Below, piece after piece: positions 7,070 to 34,877 of a DNA stretch of 35,039 nucleotides. This stretch comes from Candidatus Nomurabacteria bacterium RIFOXYD2_FULL_35_12 (lineage in GTDB: Bacteria; Patescibacteriota; Minisyncoccia; Phycocordibacterales; UBA9973), in assembly GCA_001786365.1 (NCBI GenBank), contig MFWK01000001.1:1-35039 (forward strand), given 5' to 3'. Below the pieces are notes generated by a model that worked only from the letters and a program-made list of their open reading frames with translations, was not told where the DNA came from and searched no databases. The position numbers were made by a program, and so were the translations under genes. How positions within the stretch are numbered: position 1 is the first letter of the stretch; each line of letters starts with the position of its first letter.

Positions 7070-8444
7070 TTTTAAACAACAATTTAAAGGTAAAAAGATA
7101 ACTGTCATGGGGCTCGGGCTTTTGGGGCGGGGGTTGGGATATACAAAGTTTTTAGCGGAATGTGGAGCGGACTTGATTGTGACAGATTTAAAGACAAAAG
7201 AGCAATTGGCGACTTCAATAAAAAAATTAGAAAAATTTCCTAGTATTAAATTTGTTCTAGGTGAGCATAGACTGGAGGATTTTAGAAACAGAGACATGAT
7301 TATAAAGTCTGCTGGTGTTCCATTTGATTCTATCTATATTGCTGAAGCTAGAAAAAATAATATTCCTATAGAGATGGATGTTTCTTTGTTTGCAAAGCTT
7401 GCTCCAGATGTAATGATAATAGGAGTGACAGGCACAAGAGGGAAATCAATGACAACAGCCCTTATTTATGAAATTTTATCCGCCTACGTTAAAGCTTCGG
7501 CAGGACAAGAAAAAAAGTGGAAGGTTTATCTTGGTGGTAATGTCCGTGGAGTAGCAACGCTTCCACTTTTAGAAAAAGTACAGGCTGGAGATATTTTGGT
7601 TTGCGAGCTTGATTCTTGGCAGTTGCAAGGCTTTGGTGAGGCGAAAATTTCTCCACATATTTCCGTTTTTACTTCTTTTATGCCAGATCATATGAATTAT
7701 TATAAAGATGATATAAAAGCTTATTTTGCTGATAAAGCAAATATATTTAAATATCAAAAAAGTGAGGATATTTTGATAATTCGTCCAGATATGAAGGAAT
7801 TAATACCAGAATATTTTAAAAACCTGCCTGCCGGTAGGCAGGGTAAATTAATTGTTGTTAGTGCAAAAGATACAAAAAATTACGAATTTGTTGTGCCCGG
7901 AGAATATCAAAGAGAAAATTTGGCTTGTGCAGTTGCTGTAGCAGGAGAGTTTGGGGTGCCGGAAGAGTCTATTAAAAAAGCAGTTAGAAATTTCAAAGGT
8001 TTAGAAGGAAGATTGCAATATGTAAAAACAATTAAAGGCGTAAAGATATATAATGACAATAATGCGACAACTCCGGAAGCTACGATGGTGGGCATTGAAG
8101 CGCTAGTTTCCCCTAAGTCTGACTTAGAGGGCAAAAAAATTGTACTAATTTGTGGTGGAGCAGATAAGGGGCTTAAACTAGATAATTTTACAGAAGTTGT
8201 AGAAAAATATTGCAAAGCAGTGGTGTTGATTCCGGGGACGGGGACAGACATTCTGTCTAGTAGAAAGTTAAAAGTAGAAAGTTATAAAGTAAAAGATTTG
8301 AATGAAGCAGTTAAAACTGCGTTAGGTCTTGCCTCACGCGGTGATATAATACTATTTTCACCCGCCTTTGCGTCATTTGGAATGTTTAATAATGAATATG
8401 AGCGTAACGATTTATTTTTAGAAATAATTAAAGAGTTAAAATAA
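7062..8444 (+). CDS. murD: UDP-N-acetylmuramoylalanine--D-glutamate ligase
   Basis: GLGLLGRG N-terminal fold, GVTGTRGKS P-loop, NATTPEAT, GGADKG. Start set at ATG 7062 (MIDFKQQF...), an 8-nt overlap with the murE stop. The ORF-track start 7032 is inside murE. Confidence 0.9.
   Translation: MIDFKQQFKGKKITVMGLGLLGRGLGYTKFLAECGADLIVTDLKTKEQLATSIKKLEKFPSIKFVLGEHRLEDFRNRDMIIKSAGVPFDSIYIAEARKNNIPIEMDVSLFAKLAPDVMIIGVTGTRGKSMTTALIYEILSAYVKASAGQEKKWKVYLGGNVRGVATLPLLEKVQAGDILVCELDSWQLQGFGEAKISPHISVFTSFMPDHMNYYKDDIKAYFADKANIFKYQKSEDILIIRPDMKELIPEYFKNLPAGRQGKLIVVSAKDTKNYEFVVPGEYQRENLACAVAVAGEFGVPEESIKKAVRNFKGLEGRLQYVKTIKGVKIYNDNNATTPEATMVGIEALVSPKSDLEGKKIVLICGGADKGLKLDNFTEVVEKYCKAVVLIPGTGTDILSSRKLKVESYKVKDLNEAVKTALGLASRGDIILFSPAFASFGMFNNEYERNDLFLEIIKELK
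7822..7843 (+). repeat. G+C-rich palindrome, family C copy 1, in-frame in murD
   Basis: acctgcctgccggtaggcaggg. Translated LPAGRQG. Confidence 0.75.
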
Positions 8445-18787: not shown

Positions 18788-19162
18788 ATGCAAAAAATTA
18801 AAAAATTCGTGATTTTACTTTCAATACTTTTTATGCCAGTTGTTTCTCTTGCAGAAAATTTTGTTTTAATACCTTGCAAGGGTGCTGATTGTGATTTTAA
18901 TGGTTTAATGGCTCTTATAAATAATGTAATTCATTTTGTGCTCTTTTATATGGCTGTTCCTATCGCCGCTATTATGTTCTTTTATGCTGGTTTTATGATG
19001 GTGACTTCAGCAGGTAGTTCGGAAAGCAAGACTAAAGCCAAAAATATTTTTTCTAGTGCTGTTTATGGGCTTGTCATTGTGGCAGCCGCTTGGCTCATTG
19101 TTAGGACTATATTATCAATCTTGGGCTATGAAGGGGCTTGGATATTTAATAATTTTAAATAA
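18788..19162 (+). CDS. TrbC/VirB2-like pilin-like protein 1
   Basis: Signal peptide, Cys pair (CKGADC), TM1, short charged loop (SAGSSESKTKAK), TM2. Confidence 0.7.
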   Translation: MQKIKKFVILLSILFMPVVSLAENFVLIPCKGADCDFNGLMALINNVIHFVLFYMAVPIAAIMFFYAGFMMVTSAGSSESKTKAKNIFSSAVYGLVIVAAAWLIVRTILSILGYEGAWIFNNFK

Positions 19163-19178
19163 GGTGTATAATATAATC

Positions 19179-19556
19179 ATGAATTTCATAAAAAAGAGTT
19201 GGTCCAAATTGGTTTTATTGTCTTATGCTTTTTTTATACCTATTATTTCCTTTGCTCAAAATGAGCAGATATCTCCAAATAATCCTTGCACTGCAGGTAA
19301 GATTTGTAACCCAATAAAAACAGATACAATCAATGACTTAATCAAAACTCTCTTAGAGGGAGTTTTGAAAGTGGGTATACCTATCGTTGCTTTGGCTATT
19401 ATTTATTGTGGTTTTCTTTTTGTGTCTGCTCAGGGTAATACAGAAAAATTAACTGAAGCAAAAAAATCTCTTACATATACTTTGATCGGCGCAGCGATAT
19501 TATTAGGTTCATGGGCTATTGCACAGCTTATATCAAACACTGTGCTCGCGCTTTGA
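19179..19556 (+). CDS. TrbC/VirB2-like pilin-like protein 2
   Basis: Same architecture (CTAGKIC; loop SAQGNTEKLTEAKK). Start moved to MNFIKK..., which gives a signal peptide. The ORF-track start 19056 overlaps the upstream gene. Confidence 0.7.
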   Translation: MNFIKKSWSKLVLLSYAFFIPIISFAQNEQISPNNPCTAGKICNPIKTDTINDLIKTLLEGVLKVGIPIVALAIIYCGFLFVSAQGNTEKLTEAKKSLTYTLIGAAILLGSWAIAQLISNTVLAL

Positions 19557-19560
19557 GCAA

Positions 19561-19596
19561 GTAAAAAGTTTATAAAGTTCGTAAAGTTATAAAGTA
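19561..19596 (+). promoter_or_regulatory. AAAGTT(T)AT tandem cassette
   Basis: gtaaaaagtttataaagttcgtaaagttataaagta then ATG 19597. Confidence 0.6.
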
Positions 19597-20370
19597 ATGA
19601 AAAAAATAAAAAAATACGCAATATCTATTTTAATAATCTTCGCACTCATTGGGGTTTTTAGTCCAGTGGTTCAGATTAGTGCAGATTCATTACAAACATT
19701 TGAGCAATCGCAGGATTACCCACCAAGTTATTATGCAAATAATCAACCTTCATCATCCACCTGTACTGCTTTAACCGGCGTGCAAAGTGTGATATGTAAA
19801 GTAAATGAAATAGTTGGTTCAATAGTCCCTGTTTTGATTGCTTTAGGATTAGTATATTTTGTCTGGGGAGTAATTCAGTATATGATAGGCACCGAAGAAG
19901 AGACTAAAAAGGGCGGAAAAGGGAAAATAATTTATGGCATTATCGGTTTGGCTGTTATTGTTGGTGTTTGGGGATTAGTAAATATTTTAAAAACTACTTT
20001 TGTTAATTCAGAAAATCTTTCTGCGCCTACTCTTTCGACTATAACTACAGTTGGGACGAGTGCTAGTTGTGATATTACTAAAACTTCAAAATTTCAAGAC
20101 GTTTTGTGTTATGTTACTAAAATCATCAATAATTCTATCATTCCTCTCATTTTTGCTCTTGCTCTAGCTATGTTTGTCTGGGGTGTGGTACAGTTTGTTT
20201 TGAATAGCGATGAAGAGGTGAAGAAAGAAAAAGGAAGGCAGTTTATGCTTTGGGGGATTATAGCTTTGACGGTGATGATTTCTGTATGGGGTTTGGTGGC
20301 AATATTAGGTGACACCTTTAAGATTAAGACCAATGTCCTTCCGCAAGTTCAACCACCTACAACACGCTAG
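19597..20370 (+). CDS. TrbC/VirB2-like pilin-like protein 3 (internally duplicated, two modules)
   Basis: Two consecutive Cys...Cys / TM / WGV(I/V)Q(Y/F) / acidic-basic loop / TM modules. Confidence 0.7.
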   Translation: MKKIKKYAISILIIFALIGVFSPVVQISADSLQTFEQSQDYPPSYYANNQPSSSTCTALTGVQSVICKVNEIVGSIVPVLIALGLVYFVWGVIQYMIGTEEETKKGGKGKIIYGIIGLAVIVGVWGLVNILKTTFVNSENLSAPTLSTITTVGTSASCDITKTSKFQDVLCYVTKIINNSIIPLIFALALAMFVWGVVQFVLNSDEEVKKEKGRQFMLWGIIALTVMISVWGLVAILGDTFKIKTNVLPQVQPPTTR

Positions 20371-20437
20371 ATTGCATTTGTTTTTATGATACAATTAAAA
20401 GATATTATTATTAGTTATTATTAGGTCGGATTATTAG

Positions 20438-20473
20438 TAAAAAGTTATAAAGTTTATAAAGTTATAAAGTAAA
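20438..20473 (+). promoter_or_regulatory. AAAGTT(T)AT tandem cassette
   Basis: gtaaaaagttataaagtttataaagttataaagtaa, 3 nt before ATG 20477. Confidence 0.6.
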
Positions 20474-20476
20474 TTT

Positions 20477-20881
20477 ATGAAAAAGAAATTAATTGTTTTA
20501 TCAGGTTTTGTTTTAGGTTTAGCTCCTGTCGTGGCTTTAGCACAAGGTACAGTCGGAGGTTGCGCTGGAATCATTACGGGTGGGGATCAAACACTTGTAA
20601 CGGTAATTTGTAAGGTAAATCAAATTATAGGTGTTATCGTCCCAGTTTTGATTGCTTTGGGTGTTGCTTACTTTATCTGGGGTGTCATCCAGTATGTAAT
20701 AGGAACTGATGCGGAGGCAAAATCGTCAGCCATAAATAAGATTATTTACGGCATTATCGGTTTAGCCGTTATAGTTGCTGTTTGGGGACTTGTGCAAATC
20801 TTAACTAGAACTTTCGGAGTTGATAATCCGACAGCAGTTCCTCTTCCGGGTGTTCCTGGTTTTAATGGTTCTGTTCGATAA
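20477..20881 (+). CDS. TrbC/VirB2-like pilin-like protein 4
   Basis: Very close to module 1 of protein 3 (ICKVNQIIGVIVPVLIALG..YFIWGVIQYVIGT...IIYGIIGLAVIV.VWGLV). Confidence 0.75.
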   Translation: MKKKLIVLSGFVLGLAPVVALAQGTVGGCAGIITGGDQTLVTVICKVNQIIGVIVPVLIALGVAYFIWGVIQYVIGTDAEAKSSAINKIIYGIIGLAVIVAVWGLVQILTRTFGVDNPTAVPLPGVPGFNGSVR

Positions 20882-20886
20882 AAATG

Positions 20887-20952
20887 AATCTAGTTAGAGG
20901 TTTACTTACTGGAGTCATTGTTGAAGATTATTAATTTTAATTTCTAAGCGGG
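20887..20952 (+). promoter_or_regulatory. degenerate copy of the CCCGTTAGAA...TTCTAAACGGG leader element
   Basis: 5' aatctagttagagg (20887-20900) and 3' atttctaagcggg (20940-20952), immediately before ATG 20953. Confidence 0.4.
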
Positions 20953-21309
20953 ATGGATTTATTCTCTACAAAAATAGTTTATGGGGCTCAGTCCTTAAAT
21001 CAGTTTATAGCAAATGTTGATAGGGAAATCATAAACCCTCTTATATTATTTCTTTTTGCCCTTGCTTTGGTTTATTTTCTTTATGGACTGTTTGAATTTA
21101 TAGCAAATGGAGCAAATGATGAGAAAAAAACGACGGGGAAGAGTCATATGCTTTGGGGCGTTGTAGGGCTAACCATTATGATGGGTGTTTGGTTTATCCT
21201 AGGAGTAATAATGAGCACCTTCAATATAGAGGGAATAAAGCCAGAAACAGGGGACGTGGAATTGCCTGAATATGTTGCACCTAGTACGAATGGTTTAAGA
21301 CAGAATTAG
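20953..21309 (+). CDS. TrbC/VirB2-like pilin-like protein 5 (no obvious signal peptide)
   Basis: TM / charged loop (NGANDEKKTTGKSH) / TM with MLWGVVGLTIMMGVW, as in module 2 of protein 3. Confidence 0.6.
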   Translation: MDLFSTKIVYGAQSLNQFIANVDREIINPLILFLFALALVYFLYGLFEFIANGANDEKKTTGKSHMLWGVVGLTIMMGVWFILGVIMSTFNIEGIKPETGDVELPEYVAPSTNGLRQN

Positions 21310-21433: not shown

Positions 21434-22306
21434 TCATCGCACTTTTTGCACGATGACTTTTTTATACACTCGCACCCTGACTGGATGCAGGGGGTCCGGA
21501 GAAACAAACTCTGCTTCGCCGGGCCTGAATGTTTCAGGGGTTGCAGTTCCTTCCCCTTTTCCAGATATTTCTACCCAATTGCAATTGTTATACTTGATTC
21601 GCAATGGGTAGCCATCTGACCGGACCACACATCCCCATCCTACGAAACCACTGCAGGGTGTGTATTTTTCGAACACTTTTTCCAGCATTTCAACCATCTC
21701 TACTTTTTGCTGGACGATGCGTTGTGTTGCTGGTGCCGTAACTGCCGGTGGTGGTTTGTTCCAGCGCTTACCTTGCCAGAACGTGCCAAGTGCATCCCAC
21801 AACGCACCGCCCACTCCTTTTTCTTCCAGGATGGCTCTGGCTTCATCCCGATTCGCCCACGTGGCGGTGTATTTTGGGAACCCCAGCTGGAGGATGAGGA
21901 GGGTGAAGACAACTCCGAGAGCTACTATCACCATTCCACGCTTTTGCTTGATCCAGGCGAACGCAAGCCCGCCTGCAATCAAGGCTGCAATGAGCCCCCA
22001 GATGAACAAAAGCTCTTGGTCCTTTTCTCCTACTGGCCCCAGCGCTCTTTCGATGACACCGAGACTTTTTTGGAGAATGTAGAATATCACGACAGCTATC
22101 GCGAATACTCCAGCTTTTTGGATGCCTTCCAATGCAGTTGTGACTCCATCCTTCACTTGTTTCCAGACTGAGAAGCCTAGATAGAGTGCCATGACGACCC
22201 AGAAGGTCGTAAAGAAGGGAGTTTCCCACAGTGCCTTTAACGCAGCACTGATTGCGATGGCTAAACCGAGTAAGCCTAGCCATGGTTGGTTTATTATGTT
22301 GTTCAT
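21434..22306 (-). CDS. polytopic membrane protein (about 5 TM) with Cys-containing C-terminal soluble domain, no family recognised; G+C-rich
   Basis: 290-codon ORF. TM helices separated by charged loops. ATGA overlap with the upstream ORF. Codon usage is foreign to the flanks. Confidence 0.7.
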   Translation of the reverse strand: MNNIINQPWLGLLGLAIAISAALKALWETPFFTTFWVVMALYLGFSVWKQVKDGVTTALEGIQKAGVFAIAVVIFYILQKSLGVIERALGPVGEKDQELLFIWGLIAALIAGGLAFAWIKQKRGMVIVALGVVFTLLILQLGFPKYTATWANRDEARAILEEKGVGGALWDALGTFWQGKRWNKPPPAVTAPATQRIVQQKVEMVEMLEKVFEKYTPCSGFVGWGCVVRSDGYPLRIKYNNCNWVEISGKGEGTATPETFRPGEAEFVSPDPLHPVRVRVYKKVIVQKVR

Positions 22307-23061
22307 GATTTTTTGAATCCCTTGAATACATTGACGATGGCGTCTTTAATGAACTCAGCTGCTACACTGAGCCACAAGACCTCCATTTCCGTCACTTTGT
22401 CTTTTTCTTTGCTTGCTCCAGTGCCAGTTGTTGTAGAGGCTAGTTTTGCTTTCGCTTTTGCCTCTGCTTTTTTTTCTGCCTCTTCCCACCATCTTCCAAC
22501 ATTGTCCTTAAACGCAAGAAGCAACAGTGGAAGAAGTGCAGCGACCATCCAAAAGGCCGCCTTGCTCCAGAACCAACTCTTCACTGGTTTTGTTGTTGTG
22601 GTTGTGGTCGGAGGATCACGGAGATATTCTGCGATTCCCGTGAATATGGGTTTCAAAATGGTGAGCCCACCATCAGAAGCCTGAATAACCAACCCCTTGG
22701 TTGGCTTCCACACAGACTCAACGACACCCCCTTTTTCAGGGAGGAGAAGTCCTGGTCCCCATCCGTATTGGAGAGCGATGAGGCAGGTAACCACTGTGCT
22801 GGCGAAGAAGATAAACCACCATGTGTCCTCGCCACCTTTTCGGAATAATGCCCAGAAGGCATCTTTTCCACCAAACAGACGAATGGTTCCTGCCCCTACC
22901 AGGAGGCAGATGGTGATCCATCCGATGAACGGGATCCAAAACCCCGAACTAACGAATGTCGTGATTCCTGTCCAATTCTTCACAATGAGGAAGAGGGACA
23001 ACACGGCAAGCAACACGAAGCATATTATTGTTTTGCCTTTCATGTTTTCTTTCTTGCACAT
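22303..23061 (-). CDS. polytopic membrane protein (about 4 TM) with Thr-run and Lys/Ala/Glu-rich tail, no family recognised; G+C-rich
   Basis: 252-codon ORF, first gene of a 2-gene unit behind promoter P3. The alternative start MKGKT... is 6 codons in. Confidence 0.65.
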   Translation of the reverse strand: MCKKENMKGKTIICFVLLAVLSLFLIVKNWTGITTFVSSGFWIPFIGWITICLLVGAGTIRLFGGKDAFWALFRKGGEDTWWFIFFASTVVTCLIALQYGWGPGLLLPEKGGVVESVWKPTKGLVIQASDGGLTILKPIFTGIAEYLRDPPTTTTTTKPVKSWFWSKAAFWMVAALLPLLLLAFKDNVGRWWEEAEKKAEAKAKAKLASTTTGTGASKEKDKVTEMEVLWLSVAAEFIKDAIVNVFKGFKKS

Positions 23062-23075
23062 TTAAGTGCAGATGC

Positions 23076-23095
23076 GTTCCGATTTACATCGGAAC
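23076..23095 (-). other. 5'-UTR stem-loop with GUAA tetraloop
   Basis: GTTCCGAT-gtaa-ATCGGAAC on the minus strand, between P3 and ATG 23061. Confidence 0.55.
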
Positions 23096-23127
23096 TGGTT
23101 TATGAACTTGTCAAAGAGTACGTGTAT

Positions 23128-23157
23128 ATTATATCACACTAATACTTGTTTTGTCAA
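23128..23157 (-). promoter_or_regulatory. promoter P3 (consensus hexamers)
   Basis: Minus strand: TTGACA (23157-23152), 18-nt spacer, TATAAT (23133-23128). Confidence 0.65.
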
Positions 23158-23159
23158 GC

Positions 23160-23190
23160 AAAAAAGCTCCTTAAAATAAGGAGCTTTTTT
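23160..23190. terminator. intrinsic terminator after the 164-aa gene
   Basis: AAAAAAGCTCCTTA-aaa-TAAGGAGCTTTTTT. Confidence 0.85.
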
Positions 23191-23207
23191 GGAAATTTTA
23201 TTACTGA

Positions 23208-23702
23208 TTAGCTGTGTTTAAGTGGAGTTGATTGATACTTTTCAGCACCGCCATAAATCCTTCTTACCAAGACAACTATAAACAAAATTAATATTGCAAC
23301 TATTACCCATTGAATCAATCTTGAAGGAATAAAACTATTTGATCCAAAAACTGCGTTGGCTGCGAGGTTGCTGTTATTTCCAGTGTTTGCATTATTTACA
23401 GATGTGTTTGTGGAATTAGTAGTAGTTGTTTTAGTAGTTGTAGTATTTGAATCTGTAGTATTTGTTTTTACAACCGGTACTGTTTCGTAAGTATTAACAT
23501 ACACAGGGGTAGGGTTGTATTGATTATAATTTTCAGAAGAAATATTTCCTCCACTTACAACATATCCACCATTTCCAACATATCCACCACCATAATACTG
23601 CGCGTTCGTTTTTGATGGTATCATTATCACTCCAAGAGACAAAATGGCTAAAATTACTAAGCTAAAAACGATATTATATTTTATTGTATTTATATTTTTC
23701 AT
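23208..23702 (-). CDS. secreted, C-terminally TM-anchored Gly-motif / Thr-Asn-rich protein
   Basis: Signal peptide (...PSKTNA-QY), YYGGGYVGNGGYVVSGGN motif, T/N-rich stalk, C-terminal TM helix. AT-rich codons. Confidence 0.7.
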   Translation of the reverse strand: MKNINTIKYNIVFSLVILAILSLGVIMIPSKTNAQYYGGGYVGNGGYVVSGGNISSENYNQYNPTPVYVNTYETVPVVKTNTTDSNTTTTKTTTTNSTNTSVNNANTGNNSNLAANAVFGSNSFIPSRLIQWVIVAILILFIVVLVRRIYGGAEKYQSTPLKHS

Positions 23703-23703
23703 C

Positions 23704-23804
23704 CCGTTTAGAAATCATCCCATCTATACATATTATATTTACATAAAGATAGGTAATTTATTGTTATTTTGTAACATTTTCCCGTTATGTAAATTTCTAA
23801 CGGG
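23704..23804 (-). promoter_or_regulatory. closed leader element CCCGTTAGAAAT...ATTTCTAAACGGG-ATG
   Basis: Minus-strand 5' arm 23804-23793 is complementary to the 3' arm 23716-23704, which abuts the start codon. The 5' arm can alternatively form the local hairpin CCCGTTA/TAACGGG (23781-23804). Confidence 0.55.
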
Positions 23805-23819
23805 ATTCATAACATAGAT

Positions 23820-23848
23820 AGTATAGCATATTCAGATGTAAATGTCAA
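23820..23848 (-). promoter_or_regulatory. promoter P2 (consensus -35)
   Basis: Minus strand: TTGACA (23848-23843), 17-nt spacer, TATACT (23825-23820). The 32-nt block is 30/32 identical to P1. Confidence 0.7.
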
Positions 23849-23851
23849 GAG

Positions 23852-23893
23852 AAAAGGCGCCTTTCTGCATGGTTAGCAAATTGGCGCCCTTTT
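23852..23893 (-). terminator. terminator after the lipoprotein-like gene
   Basis: Minus strand: AAAAGGGCGCC, 20-nt loop, GGCGCCTTTTCTCTT, running straight into the -35 of P2. Confidence 0.55.
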
Positions 23894-23919
23894 CGATTTC
23901 GTTGATGTGTTTTGACGTG

Positions 23920-24369
23920 TTAGTAACGTCGGCGGAAGCCACTACCTCCACTGACGACGAATCCACCGTTACCGACGAACCCTCCTCCGCCGTTTCCTCC
24001 ACAATATTGTGGAGGGTGGGACGGTGGATAATACCTACCGCCGTATTGTTTTTGCCAAGCGTAACCTGCGTTCCAAGTTGGCCGACTGTTGGCCTGAACC
24101 TGCACAGTGCCGACCTTCTCGGCGACTTGCAGCTTGTGTCGCTGTATCCCTTCATTGACTGCGAGGCCTGACTTCACTTCCGACTCGGTGTGGGTCGTTA
24201 CCCGACCGTCCGGTCCTATGTCGGTCGTGGTTTTTGTGACCGTTGCCTTCTCGCCTTCTATGTAGGGGAGCGGGCCGGTCTTCTGAGCGATGGCCGTGTT
24301 TCCATTAAAGGCGCAACCTTGCGTCAATGCCAAAACTGCTACTGCGATTATGATACTCACTGTTTTCAT
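23920..24369 (-). CDS. secreted lipoprotein-like Gly-motif protein; G+C-rich
   Basis: Good SD (AAAGGAGAC, 7 nt upstream). Signal peptide ending LALTQGC (lipobox-like, not canonical). C-terminal CGGNGGGGFVGNGGFVVSGGSGFRRRY. Confidence 0.7.
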   Translation of the reverse strand: MKTVSIIIAVAVLALTQGCAFNGNTAIAQKTGPLPYIEGEKATVTKTTTDIGPDGRVTTHTESEVKSGLAVNEGIQRHKLQVAEKVGTVQVQANSRPTWNAGYAWQKQYGGRYYPPSHPPQYCGGNGGGGFVGNGGFVVSGGSGFRRRY

Positions 24370-24398
24370 TGTCTGTCTCCTTTGTTGTTATTGTTGTT

Positions 24399-24450
24399 CC
24401 TGCGTGATAGTAACTTAGAAAATCAATTTTCTAAACTATTATCACACAGG
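24399..24450 (-). other. 24-bp imperfect hairpin in the 5' UTR
   Basis: Minus-strand RNA CCUGUGUGAUAAUAGUUUAGAAAA-UUGA-UUUUCUAAGUUACUAUCACGCAGG. 20 Watson-Crick pairs, 3 G-U pairs and 1 mismatch. The wobbles only work on the minus strand. Confidence 0.6.
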
Positions 24451-24496
24451 AAAGCAAGGAAAATGTAGAAAGAACAATATATCTATTACTTTTAAT

Positions 24497-24525
24497 AGTA
24501 TAGCATATTCATATGTAAAAGTCAA
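24497..24525 (-). promoter_or_regulatory. promoter P1
   Basis: Minus strand: TTGACT (24525-24520), 17-nt spacer, TATACT (24502-24497). Confidence 0.7.
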
Positions 24526-24561
24526 GGACTATTTTAGCCTTTAAAATATGGGTATTTTTTG

Positions 24562-24643
24562 TGGGCAAGGGGGGACTCGAACCCCCACCCCTTACGGGAT
24601 CAGTTCCTAAGACTGAAGCGGCTACCAATTACGCCACTTGCCC
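24562..24643 (-). tRNA. tRNA-Leu (anticodon TAG)
   Basis: rc reads GGGCAAGTGGCGTAATTGGTAG...TCAGT-CTTAGGA-ACTGA, long variable arm, GGGGG-TTCGAGT-CCCCC, CTTGCCC-A. Confidence 0.9.
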
Positions 24644-24844
24644 AAGATATTTTGCACGTTCCTACTTTGTGGTCACAAGTATTTTTCTACTGAAAAATCT
24701 CGCGACCCCGTCTCGGCATCGTCATGCCTATGGCTCGCACAAAATTTTGTGGTCAGGAATATTTTGCTCGTCGACACTCACAAAATTTCACGATCCTGCC
24801 TCGGTTGTTTTTTTGCAGAAAAAACATACCTCCGGCTCGCCCTA

Positions 24845-24880
24845 GTCAGAAAAATTAAAAGCAGTTTTAATTTTTCTGAC
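24845..24880. other. perfect 16-bp hairpin between tRNA-Lys and tRNA-Leu
   Basis: GTCAGAAAAATTAAAA-gcag-TTTTAATTTTTCTGAC. Confidence 0.7.
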
Positions 24881-24884
24881 CTAG

Positions 24885-24957
24885 TGCGCCCACCAGGGAT
24901 CGAACCTGGGACATTCTCCTTAAGAGGGAGCTACTCTACCAGCTGAGTTATGGGCGC
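24885..24957 (-). tRNA. tRNA-Lys (anticodon CTT)
   Basis: rc reads GCGCCCATAACTCAGCTGGTAGAGTA-GCTCC-CTCTTAA-GGAGA-ATGTC-CCAGG-TTCGATC-CCTGG-TGGGCGC-A. Confidence 0.9.
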
Positions 24958-24976
24958 ATATATTTATTCAGTTGTG

Positions 24977-25058
24977 TGCCCGAGGTGGGAATCGAACCCA
25001 CATCCCTTACGGGACACCATTTTAAGTGGTGCGCGTATACCAATTCCGCCACTCGGGC
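24977..25058 (-). tRNA. tRNA-Leu (anticodon TAA)
   Basis: rc reads GCCCGAGTGGCGGAATTGGTA...CACCA-CTTAAAA-TGGTG, long variable arm, GTGGG-TTCGATT-CCCAC, CTCGGGC-A. Confidence 0.9.
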
Positions 25059-25090
25059 ATTTCCTAAAAATATCTTAACATTTTTTAGGG

Positions 25091-25162
25091 AGGCCTGGGG
25101 CGGAATTGAACCGCCGTATATTCCTTTTGCAGAGGAATGCCTTACCACTTGGCTACCAGGCC
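25091..25162 (-). tRNA. tRNA-Cys (anticodon GCA)
   Basis: rc reads GGCCTGGTAGCCAAGTGGTAAGGCA-TTCCT-CTGCAAA-AGGAA-...GGCGG-TTCAATT-CCGCC-CCAGGCC-T. Confidence 0.9.
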
Positions 25163-25174
25163 TTAATCAATATC

Positions 25175-32787: not shown

Positions 32788-32892
32788 TACTTGTTATTTT
32801 CTAAAAAGTATGTTATTATCAAAACAGTTTGAAAAGGCCTTTGGGGCTTTTTTCTTTCATTAAACAAAATTTATTTATATAACAAAATGGAT

Positions 32893-33011
32893 CCCGTTAG
32901 AAGCCGCGATCGCAATACAAATATAAACAAAAATATGAAAACAAATATTGGAAAAATTAATAACATAATATATCAGACACGCGAGTTGATCGCGATCTGC
33001 TTCTAAACGGG
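32893..33011 (+). promoter_or_regulatory. closed leader element CCCGTTAGAAGC...GCTTCTAAACGGG-ATG before typA
   Basis: 5' arm 32893-32904 pairs with 3' arm 32999-33011, which abuts ATG 33012. An inner CGCGATC/GATCGCG extension is present. Confidence 0.55.
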
Positions 33012-34877
33012 ATGGAAATTAGAAATATAGCTATTATAGCTCACGTGGACCATGGGAAGACTACCTTGACCGATGCTTTGATGAAGCAAAATGGTGGGCT
33101 TCAAGATGAGGGAGTCTCAATGGATTCAAATGCTTTGGAAAAAGAGCGTGGTATTACTATTTACTCAAAAAATACTTCCATAAATTACAAAGACACTAAA
33201 ATAAACATTGTAGATACGCCCGGACACGCGGATTTCGGCAGCGAGGTGGAACGTGTTTTGCGCGCAGTAGATTGCGTGCTTTTGCTCGTGGATGCAGTCG
33301 AAGGCCCAATGCCTCAAACCAGGTTCGTTTTAAAAAAGTCTTTGGAGTTAGGGCAAAAGCCAATTGTGGTTATAAATAAAATAGATAAACCTGCTTCTGA
33401 TCCACATAGAGTTCATGAAGAAATTTTGAACTTATTTTTTGAATTAGGAGCTTCTGAAGAGCAAGCGAATTTTGAAACTATTTATGCTATTGGACGACAA
33501 GGGGTAGCTTTTAAAAAATTAGGTGATGATTCAAAAGATTTGTCTCCTCTTTTAGATTTAATTTTAGAAAAAGTTCCAGACGCAAGTAAGTGTCAAGGAC
33601 TGTCCTTGACAAGTATGTCAAAGACCGTCTTTGACACTAAGAAAATGTCTGCGCAAGTTTTCAATCTTGGTTATGATAATTTTCTAGGCAGAATGGCAGT
33701 AGCTAGAATTTATTCCGGTACAATTTTTTCCGGAAGTAATATTTTTATAAAAGGAGAGAGGGAAATACGCAGTGGCAAAGTAACAAAACTTTTTACTTTT
33801 GAAGGAATAAACAGAAAAGAAGTGGAAAATGCGACTTCTGGAGACATAGTTCTCTTGGCTGGAATTCCAGACATATATATAGGTGAGACATTATGTGAAG
33901 ACGAGAGCGTAGAACCTTTGCCTCACATTGCTATTGATGAGCCGACTCTTTCTCTTAACTTTTTAGTAAATGATTCTCCATTTGCCGGCAAAGAAGGAAA
34001 GTTTGTTACGTCCAGACAAATCAAAGAAAGACTAGAAAAGGAGTTAGAGATAAACGTCGGACTAAAAGTTGATTTTACTCCGGATCAGGGTGATAAAAAG
34101 TCAGGTCCGAGTTTCTTTAAAGTTTATGGCCGTGGAGAACTGCACATAGCGATACTTTTGGAATATATGCGCCGAGAGGGATTTGAAATGCAAGTCTCTC
34201 AACCGGAAGTTATCATAAAAGAAAAAGATGGAGTGAGTACAGAGCCATATGAAGAGCTGGTTATTGATGTTCCTATGGAGTCTTCTGGTGGAGTTATAGA
34301 AAAGATAGGAAAAAGACGAGGAATAATGAAAGATATGATGGAAAAAGAGGGTATAGCTAGGATTACTTTTGACATACCGACTCGTGGACTTTTGGGTTAT
34401 CGTGGTGAATTTATTATAGATACAAAAGGCGAAGGCATTATGTCTTCTAGAGTCACAGGATTTAGAGAATATGCTGGAGAAATAAAAAGACGAGAGTATG
34501 GTGCGATGACTTCTATGATAAATGGCAAGGCAGTTGCCTTTGCGCTTGCAAATTTACAGGAACGTGGTATACTTTATGTAAGTCACGGTACTGAAGTTTA
34601 TGAAGGTATGGTGGTGGGTAATGTTTTGAAGGGTGATGATATGTCAGTGAACCCTACAAAAGGAAAACAGCTTACCAACATGCGTGCTTCTGGAACTGAT
34701 GAGGCCATAGTTTTAAATCCTGTATTTTCTTTGAATATTGAAAGAGGTTTGGAAGTGATGAATGAAGATGAGTATTTGGAAATCACTCCAAAATCAGTTA
34801 GACTTAGAAAGAAATATCTAACTGACCTTGATAGGAAAAAGCATTTCGCTGCACAAATTGATAAAGAAAAAAAATAA
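33012..34877 (+). CDS. typA: translational GTPase TypA/BipA
   Basis: [30 protein letters not shown]-like domains with the BipA-type C-terminus. Confidence 0.93.
33591..33636 (+). repeat. tandem pair of perfect 10-bp-arm palindromes, family E, in-frame in typA
   Basis: TGTCAAGGAC-t-GTCCTTGACA, agta, TGTCAAAGAC-c-GTCTTTGACA. Translated (K)[16 protein letters not shown]. Confidence 0.75.

Follow-up and report, generated by a model that had tools for sequence, protein, structure and literature searches.

Matched tip peptides in two adjacent, unrelated envelope protein genes of Candidatus Nomurabacteria and related loci

We analysed a stretch of 35,039 nucleotides (nt; the window, overall guanine-plus-cytosine (GC) fraction 0.37) from Candidatus Nomurabacteria, an uncultured groundwater bacterium, in which two neighbouring genes encode a 149-amino-acid (aa) predicted lipoprotein and a 164-aa protein predicted to be held in the membrane by a C-terminal helix, hereafter the anchor protein. 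The two proteins share one 15-residue peptide, located near the C-terminus of the lipoprotein and close behind the signal peptide of the anchor protein. The same pairing with different peptides in relatives points to co-evolving proteins rather than a duplicated gene. The best explanation overall, which we hold with slightly less than even confidence, is that two unrelated envelope proteins present one common short peptide, each at the free end that points away from the membrane, and that these tips pair.

A preliminary description of this DNA had reported two open reading frames (ORFs) with a shared motif in neighbouring genes, and all of its elements were found where it had placed them. In the lipoprotein, the tip GGGFVGNGGFVVSGG spans residues 128-142 and is followed by seven C-terminal residues, SGFRRRY; in the anchor protein, the tip GGGYVGNGGYVVSGG spans residues 38-52 and starts 3 residues past the predicted signal-peptidase cut. 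Written as peptides, the tips of the window pair are GGGFVGNGGFVVSGGSGFRRRY and QYYGGGYVGNGGYVVSGGN, the 164-aa product reading TNA and then, directly past the signal peptide, QYYGGGYVGNGGYVVSGGN, and the 149-aa product ending in CGGNGGGGFVGNGGFVVSGGSGFRRRY. Thirteen of the 15 residues are identical, the remaining two are Tyr/Phe exchanges, and the motif consists of two pseudo-repeats, GG[FY]V[GV][NS]. At the DNA level, 13 of 45 bases differ, 11 of them at third positions and the other two at second positions (the Tyr/Phe changes), in agreement with the earlier statement that the two stretches differ mostly at third positions. The same codon is used at 4 of the 13 identical residues, and the genes differ in GC (0.32 for the anchor gene versus 0.55 for the lipoprotein gene) as well as in GC at third codon positions (GC3; 0.22 versus 0.56). 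Local alignment of the two tips gave a score of 77, which none of 20000 composition-preserving shuffles of these Gly-rich sequences reached (largest score, 65); a chance likeness of low-complexity Gly stretches, named beforehand as a possible refutation, is thus not what was found. Outside the 15 residues, the 149-aa and 164-aa proteins are unrelated, and family alignments assign them to two separate families. The earlier view of copies of one secreted motif family therefore did not hold, nor did the expected conservation of the motif, which neither family keeps in full; all that recurs, past the signal peptides of anchor homologues, is a short G-[YF]-V core. A diversity-generating retroelement was considered and rejected, as the 13 differences fall at both A and T positions of either copy and are not adenine-specific; neither the scanned ORFs of the window nor, for the remainder of the locus, the precomputed Pfam table contained a reverse transcriptase.

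In many related loci, the gene immediately upstream of the anchor gene is GC-rich and encodes a secreted protein or lipoprotein, and these upstream genes belong to several unrelated families. The C-terminal extreme of the upstream product resembles the mature N-terminus of the anchor protein of the same locus, with a peptide that varies by species (Table 1). Three close relatives co-track in this respect, with upstream and anchor tips reading GGGFVGNGGFVVSGG and GGGYVGNGGYVVSGG in the window, YYGGYIVN and QYGGYIT in locus L114, and GYGGYIQ and GYGGYVG in locus L007. For a systematic comparison, a pair was accepted if the upstream ORF had a signal-like N-terminus and exceeded the anchor gene in GC by at least 0.08, a rule that gave 17 non-redundant pairs, and the last 20 residues of each upstream product were scored against the 40 residues past the hydrophobic signal-peptide stretch of every anchor protein. 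The mean tip score was 26.8 for true partners versus 18.4 (sd 5.0) for non-partners (permutation p = 2e-5, 17 pairs). The difference persisted among the 16 other pairs when the window pair was omitted (p = 6e-5), when the pairs of the window, L007 and L092 (near-duplicate type) were all left out (p = 1.6e-4), and with other window lengths for the scored segments (p = 4e-5 to 6e-3). For 5 of 16 tails the unique best anchor was the true partner, where about one was expected. When the whole mature upstream protein was scanned, the best match lay in the last 20% in 13 of 19 pairs (binomial p = 6.5e-6). The upstream match mostly ends 0-6 residues from the C-terminus, often with only basic residues after it, and the anchor match lies near the signal-peptide cut.

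Codon usage at the matched positions followed the gene and not the partner: 53 identical residues in 10 pairs shared the same codon in 17 cases, and each tip tracks the GC3 of its own gene. Since the codons differ and each tip follows its own GC3, selection on the peptides keeps the match, and recent copying does not explain it. Judged from these codon and partner comparisons, the analyses show that selection acting on the proteins in each species preserves the match, as in co-evolution, and that shared DNA does not account for it. Some of the upstream genes are absent from public annotations. In L007, a small GC-rich lipoprotein gene (7567-7893, + strand; MKSIIIVLLLVLGGCQ...GYGGYIQNYRH) is missing from the public gene calls, which give instead a 71-aa wrong-frame product on one contig and a 121-aa opposite-strand product on another, and the upstream gene of L114 (bases 1-290, frame 0) was likewise missed.

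Both products had been described as secreted, and the family alignments bear this out. The signal peptide of the 149-aa protein contains Gly18-Cys19 and is followed by a small, conserved domain in the N-terminal part and a Gly/Tyr/Pro-rich tail. While a word-indexed homologue search with this protein returned only itself, an exhaustive HMMER search revealed a family of about 15 representatives. Its hydrophobic N-terminus runs into MKTVSIIIAVAVLALTQG-C, and G18 and C19 are invariant in 14 homologues; Thr-Gln at positions -3/-2 is atypical in the window protein, the family consensus being x-S-G-C. By sequence, the invariant Gly-Cys marks the family as lipoproteins with predicted lipidation. The common domain of about 70 residues reads KPLPY..GE.AV.T...DGKVT...KTGLAVNEGIQH.RLD.A..VGVA and is followed by the variable Gly/Tyr-rich tail. 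AlphaFold2 predicted a beta-hairpin (residues 41-67) and a helix (68-89) at a moderate pLDDT of 70-80, and disorder for residues 86-149, and this small hairpin-plus-helix domain offered too little for a fold search.

In the anchor protein, the signal peptide is predicted to be cut after Ala34; then come the tip, a stalk rich in Tyr/Asn/Pro and Thr/Asn, a membrane-proximal conserved segment, a transmembrane helix and a conserved tail of 17 aa. Members of its family occur in 31 loci from genomes, labelled mostly Candidatus Nomurabacteria or Paceibacterota and in some cases Saccharibacteria, and in 70 loci from metagenomes. Signal-peptide cut sites were placed by conservation and not by a predictor; in the family alignment Pro29 and Ala34, the residue before the cut, are invariant. 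The C-terminal module is conserved as SNLAANAxFGSNSFxPSGLIQW, the transmembrane helix and RRIYGGxEKYHxTPLKH (a 15-17-residue tail), while the middle region is of low complexity and variable and in some members contains an IPT/TIG (Ig-like) domain. This module was also considered as a sortase signal of the LPXTG type and rejected: the anchor protein has F-[ILM]-P-S-[GR]-L without Thr-Gly and a conserved 15-17-residue tail past the basic residues, the NCBIfam LPXTG_anchor model did not match the 164-aa protein, and the module occurs in one copy per genome locus and not as a general tag. Many predicted anchor proteins (P0008, P0014 and those of loci L011, L015, L022, L024 and others) begin with MLYY or MLHY, which is the translated extended -10 box ATGCTATACTAT. 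As these starts are translated promoter, they are an artefact of gene calling in a lineage whose genes can be leaderless.

The two tips are probably coupled in function, either by pairing with each other or through one common binding partner. Tethering of the lipoprotein by its N-terminus would leave its C-terminal tail free, and tethering of the anchor protein by its C-terminal helix would leave its N-terminal tip free on the stalk; with these opposite tethers, the same peptide would lie at the end furthest from the membrane in both proteins. There, the free ends, rich in Gly, aromatic and beta-branched residues, would pair as short beta-strand or zipper segments, and the lipoprotein tail would dock onto, cap or nucleate the anchor tip at the cell surface. 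Each gene would be expressed as its own transcription unit behind a strong promoter of the lineage consensus, with the lipoprotein gene also placed under a structured leader. Because identical short segments of such composition suit in-register beta pairing, direct pairing of like with like is the form of coupling that we favour, albeit tentatively and well short of even confidence. In a broader version, which we think unlikely, the tips may constitute a species-specific extracytoplasmic 'peptide zipper' code, in which secreted proteins of several unrelated families, encoded by mobile GC-rich cassettes, copy in their C-terminal tails the N-terminal tip of the anchor protein resident next to the VirB2-like pilin array, and like-with-like pairing templates, caps or gates a surface structure for host or kin contact. 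If true, it would give this lineage, from which no mechanism of this kind is known, an extracellular equivalent of the amyloid signalling pairs.

Several points weigh against pairing tips. About a third of the pairs lack a convincing match (L013, L025, L084, L060), and upstream of many anchor genes there is no partner. The tails are alike in composition (Gly/Tyr-rich), which inflates raw scores, although the comparison of partners with non-partners controls for this; in addition, the 16-19 pairs make a small set, which was collected once the pattern had been spotted by eye. Moreover, direct pairing and binding of both tips to one shared third partner fit the data alike, and the data cannot separate them. 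Such ligand mimicry, with for instance the VirB2-like pilus, a wall polymer or a receptor on the host cell of the presumed episymbiont as the third partner, is the main rival but strikes us as rather doubtful; in that case, the lipoprotein tail would act as a further adhesin, as a competitor or as a decoy. Partner-specific tip matching would serve it equally, and a match in unrelated upstream families fits a common external target. The anchor gene almost always lies beside the pilin array, an adhesin-like IPT/TIG domain follows the tip in some anchor homologues, and type IV secretion system genes including the pilin array have been reported as essential for epibiotic growth of a Saccharimonadia strain (PMC12102498). 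However, no candidate receptor with matching co-variation was identified, and a peptide that varies by species needs an equally fast partner, whereas the pilins are comparatively conserved (64-75% identity, window versus L007).

Pairing of co-evolving tips was further weighed against origins that assign the match no function or a different history. A leftover of a DNA event, in which the tip stretch was copied by duplication or gene conversion and persists as a decaying, functionless relic, is very unlikely. While the genes are adjacent, their near-identical promoter blocks are possible recombination substrates and YNGYI in L029 is coded by the identical 15 nt in both genes, synonymous sites look randomised overall (17 of 53 shared codons, 4 of 13 in the window) with the GC3 of its own gene in each copy. 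Neutral decay would also erase amino acids as fast as codons, and different peptides are matched in different species, close relatives included. The preliminary description had proposed that one secreted motif family is represented twice, by a native and by a xenologous copy, with a common promoter and common regulation. This is highly improbable: nothing is common to the two proteins beyond the tip, they belong to different families of which the motif is no signature, many species have GC-rich genes at these positions, and the promoter is a lineage consensus followed by two leaders unlike in kind, all of which stand against the sharp contrast in composition, the 30 of 32 identical promoter positions and the one family cassette that lies beside a gene that, by eye, looks transposase-like. 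A chance likeness of two Gly-rich, low-complexity stretches is scarcely credible; both regions are indeed Gly- and aromatic-rich, yet none of the 20000 shuffles reached the score and the pattern recurs in independent pairs.

Table 1 Features of the locus in the window and matched tips in related loci.
Feature	Position	Strand	Remarks
149-aa GC-rich lipoprotein gene (upstream partner)	23920-24369	-	ORF list
164-aa AT-rich anchor protein gene (downstream partner)	23208-23702	-	ORF list
Lipoprotein tip GGGFVGNGGFVVSGG	23944-23988	-	
Anchor tip GGGYVGNGGYVVSGG	23547-23591	-	
Promoter P1, lipoprotein gene	24497-24525	-	TTGACT, 17 nt, TG-c-TATACT
Promoter P2, anchor gene	23820-23848	-	TTGACA, 17 nt, TG-c-TATACT
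Promoter P3, two GC-rich membrane-protein genes	23128-23157	-	TTGACA, 18 nt, TG-a-TATAAT
Lipoprotein 5' leader	24370-24496	-	box GTTCTTTCTACAT 24463-24475; hairpin 24397-24452; A/C-rich spacer with AAGGAG before ATG
P3 leader	23062-23127	-	
Terminator-like hairpin 3' of lipoprotein gene	23853-23895	-	GGCGCC...GGCGCC, T run; read by eye, unlisted in a simple scan
Terminator 3' of anchor gene	23159-23191		perfect 15-bp hairpin between A and T runs
Inserted element, anchor gene	23698-23810	-	103-nt element 23703-23805 plus ATGAA duplicated at each end; between P2 and anchor start codon
Element copy, pilin gene	20884-20955	+	
Element copy, GTPase gene	32887-33014	+	
VirB2-like (PF18895) pilin array	18788-21309	+	five genes, convergent with anchor locus; family searches
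Downstream GC-rich cassette	21434-23061	-	252-aa gene 22303-23061, 290-aa gene 21434-22306; multi-pass membrane proteins
Matched tips, L007			upstream GYGGYIQNYRH (protein end); anchor QYGYGGYVGS
Matched tips, L114			upstream YYGGYIVNGGG...RRH (protein end); anchor QAQYGGYITT
Matched tips, L040			upstream SSGEGGVNTVFSN (protein end); anchor TCGEGGCNTIYNT
Matched tips, L086			upstream SSGEGGHNFVYTH (protein end); anchor SCGEGGCNTVFNT
Matched tips, L100			upstream NEPVYGSGVWGH (protein end; matched part NEPVYGSGVW); anchor NEDVYGGSSSVW
Matched tips, L039			upstream GVFAPIIGYRRR (protein end); anchor EVFVPVHGYY; matched VFAPIIGY / VFVPVHGY
Matched tips, L029			upstream PYNGYICD; anchor YYNGYIDL; matched YNGYI / YNGYI
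Matched tips, L022			upstream RATFRTPN (protein end); anchor YATYRFSS
Matched tips, further example			upstream tail SGEGGVNTVFSN; anchor start CGEGGCNTIYNT

The lipoprotein gene belongs to a wider class of GC-rich genes (GC 0.48-0.65) that flank the anchor gene in most related loci, as a small upstream gene, a downstream block of about 1.5 kb, or both. The same slot is held by different gene families in different species, and a cassette composition near 55% GC persists in hosts of 35-46% GC. The GC-rich genes of the window and L007 are 22-31% identical (26-31% for the 252-aa and 290-aa proteins of the downstream cassette), compared with 64-85% for infB, rbfA, the pilins and a binding protein (pilins 64-75%). 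The 'codon dialects' noted earlier thus do place the GC-rich gene in a compositionally distinct class, but a recent foreign arrival is not indicated, as relatives carry GC-rich genes in the same positions. As far as composition and relatives tell, the lipoprotein gene is part of a fast-changing, compositionally distinct accessory pool and neither a recent one-off import nor a copy of the anchor gene. In locus L112 (807-1970, - strand), a 149-aa-family lipoprotein cassette behind a promoter of the same type adjoins a 387-aa protein that resembles a DDE-type transposase or integrase by eye.

In the window, the downstream cassette genes for the 252-aa and 290-aa proteins have a GC of 0.48 and 0.50, respectively, and in 20 loci, the six same-species copies included, a relative of the 290-aa protein is encoded downstream of the anchor gene. 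The sequence CSGFVGWGC in the C-terminal domain of the 290-aa protein was considered as a third copy of the tip; it is kept in a 58%-identical relative and absent from the L007 homologue, and was treated as unrelated. An AlphaFold2 model of this membrane protein, built from three sequences, had a mean pLDDT of 38.7 and was not used. Profile searches of the 149-, 164-, 252- and 290-aa proteins against Pfam, NCBIfam, PHROGs, PADLOC and the PDB gave no meaningful match.

The lipoprotein and anchor genes are separated by an intergenic gap of 218 nt without overlap and form separate predicted transcription units. The near-identical promoter blocks of the preliminary description, with TTGAC(A/T), a 17-nt spacer and TATACT, are present, the -10 boxes being of the extended TG-n type. 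The two 32-nt blocks (23818-23849 and 24495-24526) are identical at 30 of 32 positions and are the sole two copies in the window, with none expected by chance. In relatives, both genes likewise lie behind CTTGAC[TA]TTT, about 9 variable bases and ATATGCTATACT. About 22 of 30 promoter positions thus represent a lineage-wide consensus, and extra spacer bases are held in common in the window (28/30) and in L015 (27/30). In a scan of the 35-kb window, only three promoters (24525, 23848 and 23157), all in this locus, had both a -35 box of the TTGAC type and an extended -10 box. Together with the hairpins behind the genes, this suggests three separate, strongly expressed units, each closed by a hairpin.

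The distances from promoter to start codon are roughly equal, as had been noted, at 117 nt (anchor gene) and 127 nt (lipoprotein gene), but this is a coincidence, the anchor leader being an inserted element and the lipoprotein leader a conserved one. Similarly, of the proposed common regulation, the same promoter type stands; this type is lineage-wide, however, only the lipoprotein gene has a structured leader, and the leader of the anchor gene stems from an insertion.

The lipoprotein leader is 81% identical between the window and L007, even though the coding sequences behind it are unrelated. A leader with the box GTTCTTTCTAYAT precedes GC-rich secreted-protein cassette genes in at least nine loci, and eleven leaders could be aligned (window, L007, L015, L033, L040 (two), L062, L084, L100 and L113 (two)). 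Its hairpin comprises 22 pairs, with 94.5% of alignment cells paired and compensatory changes at 11 pairs, a level reached in none of 500 shuffles, and pairing dropped to 36-56% when one arm was slid by 1-3 columns. In the predicted fold of the window leader, the AAGGAG ribosome-binding site is paired with UUCCUU, a pyrimidine tract located 5' of the hairpin. An Rfam search of the leader found nothing at the gathering threshold (tRNAs only), and a permissive scan returned microRNA-type matches at chance level. This leader is a candidate new cis-regulatory RNA. The leader behind P3 is of a different kind: it contains the motif TCTTTGACA (window and L007) or TCGTTGACA (L114), followed by short GC-rich hairpins, and lies at 8545-8640 in L007 and at 985-1045 in L114.

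In relatives, the anchor gene is leaderless, with a -10 box that ends 5-10 nt before the ATG, and the inserted element is absent. Its boundaries in the window were placed by eye and by pattern searches. The ends of the element at the anchor gene are the inverted repeats TCCCGTTAGAAAT and ATTTCTAAACGGGA, which are predicted to base-pair with each other when the RNA folds (z = -4.1). An element of this type (about 70-125 nt, ends TCCCGTTAGAA and TTCTAAACGGGA) lies at three start codons in the window, those of the anchor gene, a pilin gene at 20953 and a GTPase gene at 33012 (Table 1), with the start codon (ATG, ATGAA or ATGGA) duplicated at both junctions. The anchor and pilin orthologues of L007 lack it. 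Other metagenome contigs match the element end with 3-6 mismatches, while a plasmid search with the inserted element gave no match. The element resembles a miniature mobile element whose insertion sites are start codons of leaderless genes.

Matched pairs of proteins encoded side by side are known from several systems. In curli, CsgB and CsgA are encoded by adjacent genes for a surface-tethered and a second secreted protein with shared repeats, through which one protein can template the other. The window pair is similar in its adjacent genes, its tethered and secreted partners and its common motif, but it has no curlin repeats (Pfam) and no secretion channel genes, and what is common is one tip of 10-15 residues and not a repeat domain. 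In Bacillus subtilis, the membrane-associated minor protein TapA donates a terminal strand that replaces that of the major protein TasA (PMC10151520; PMC9674648). Here, too, two secreted proteins come from one locus; they have, however, no sequence relation to TapA/TasA, no match to a camelysin/TasA fold (Pfam and PDB profiles) and no identified acceptor fold, and the match is between the C-terminal tail of a lipoprotein and the N-terminal tip of a membrane-anchored stalk.

Amyloid signalling pairs include fungal HRAM and HET-s with NWD2 and the bacterial motifs BASS1-10 in gene pairs for Bell-domain and NLR proteins (10.1101/2020.01.06.895854). The BASS pairs were found by aligning the C- and N-termini of adjacent gene products, and pseudo-repeats were reported for some of their motifs (10.1101/2020.01.06.895854). 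As in these pairs, a short motif lies at the C-terminus of the first protein and at the N-terminus of the adjacent collinear product, here the N-terminus of the mature anchor protein, and the window motif is also pseudo-repeated. In contrast to them, the window proteins have no NLR (NB-ARC/NACHT), Bell or HeLo domain (Pfam; nothing significant in NCBIfam), carry export signals that would put any contact outside the cytoplasm, and are encoded in separate predicted transcription units 218 nt apart, with no overlap of the genes. The host, moreover, belongs to the unicellular, ultra-small Patescibacteria and not to multicellular Actinobacteria or Cyanobacteria. By analogy, amyloid signalling pairs are the closest in logic, together with pairs of a nucleator or chaperone and its subunit such as TapA/TasA, but membership fails on the defining domains and on the compartment. 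Limited keyword searches of the literature found no description of a matched-tip pair.

Patescibacteria make up a large, mostly uncultured share of bacterial diversity, and how they build their surfaces and recognise partners is little understood. Surface tips that co-vary species by species beside a pilin array would offer a concrete molecular lead in this group, the more so as this kind of array is reported to be essential for epibiotic growth in a related class (PMC12102498). VirB2-like pilin arrays of 2-11 genes have been described for Patescibacteria, in a survey that states that no adhesins were detected (PMC12102498). The anchor gene is the constant neighbour of such a PF18895 array, here of five genes, and the passages of the survey that were consulted make no mention of an anchor protein, a lipoprotein cassette or matched tips (PMC12102498). 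The search for matching termini in adjacent genes, so far used for cytoplasmic amyloid signalling, would thereby also find coupled exported proteins. By-products of the analysis are a promoter consensus and leaderless starts that explain wrong gene calls, the putative new structured leader RNA and the small element that appears to insert at start codons.

The locus is embedded in ordinary chromosomal genes (secA, mur ligases, gyrA, infB, rbfA, clpB and a tRNA cluster). A pilin homologue adjoins the anchor gene in 74 loci, and the anchor gene with its facing pilin array forms the conserved core. No strain variants of the locus were found in contigs of four sequencing runs. All 20 runs in which the locus occurs carry a DNA label, itself a guessed one, and none is an RNA run. 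In the adjacent tRNA cluster, a block of tRNA-Leu(tag), tRNA-Lys and tRNA-Leu(taa) is inverted between species (window 24561-25163 versus L007 6849-7345): in the window all four tRNA genes are co-oriented with the lipoprotein gene, whereas in L007 only tRNA-Cys is. Between tRNA-Leu and tRNA-Lys lies a non-coding stretch (TTTGTGGTCACAAGTATTTTTCTACTGAAAAATCTCGCGACCCCG...; window 24644-24883) that had no Rfam match at the gathering score. It is kept across species (L007 7027-7138; L032 about 2671-2772), and its window copy has a direct repeat in the interior (24666-24688 and 24746-24768), with a perfect 16-bp hairpin (24845-24880) at the end.

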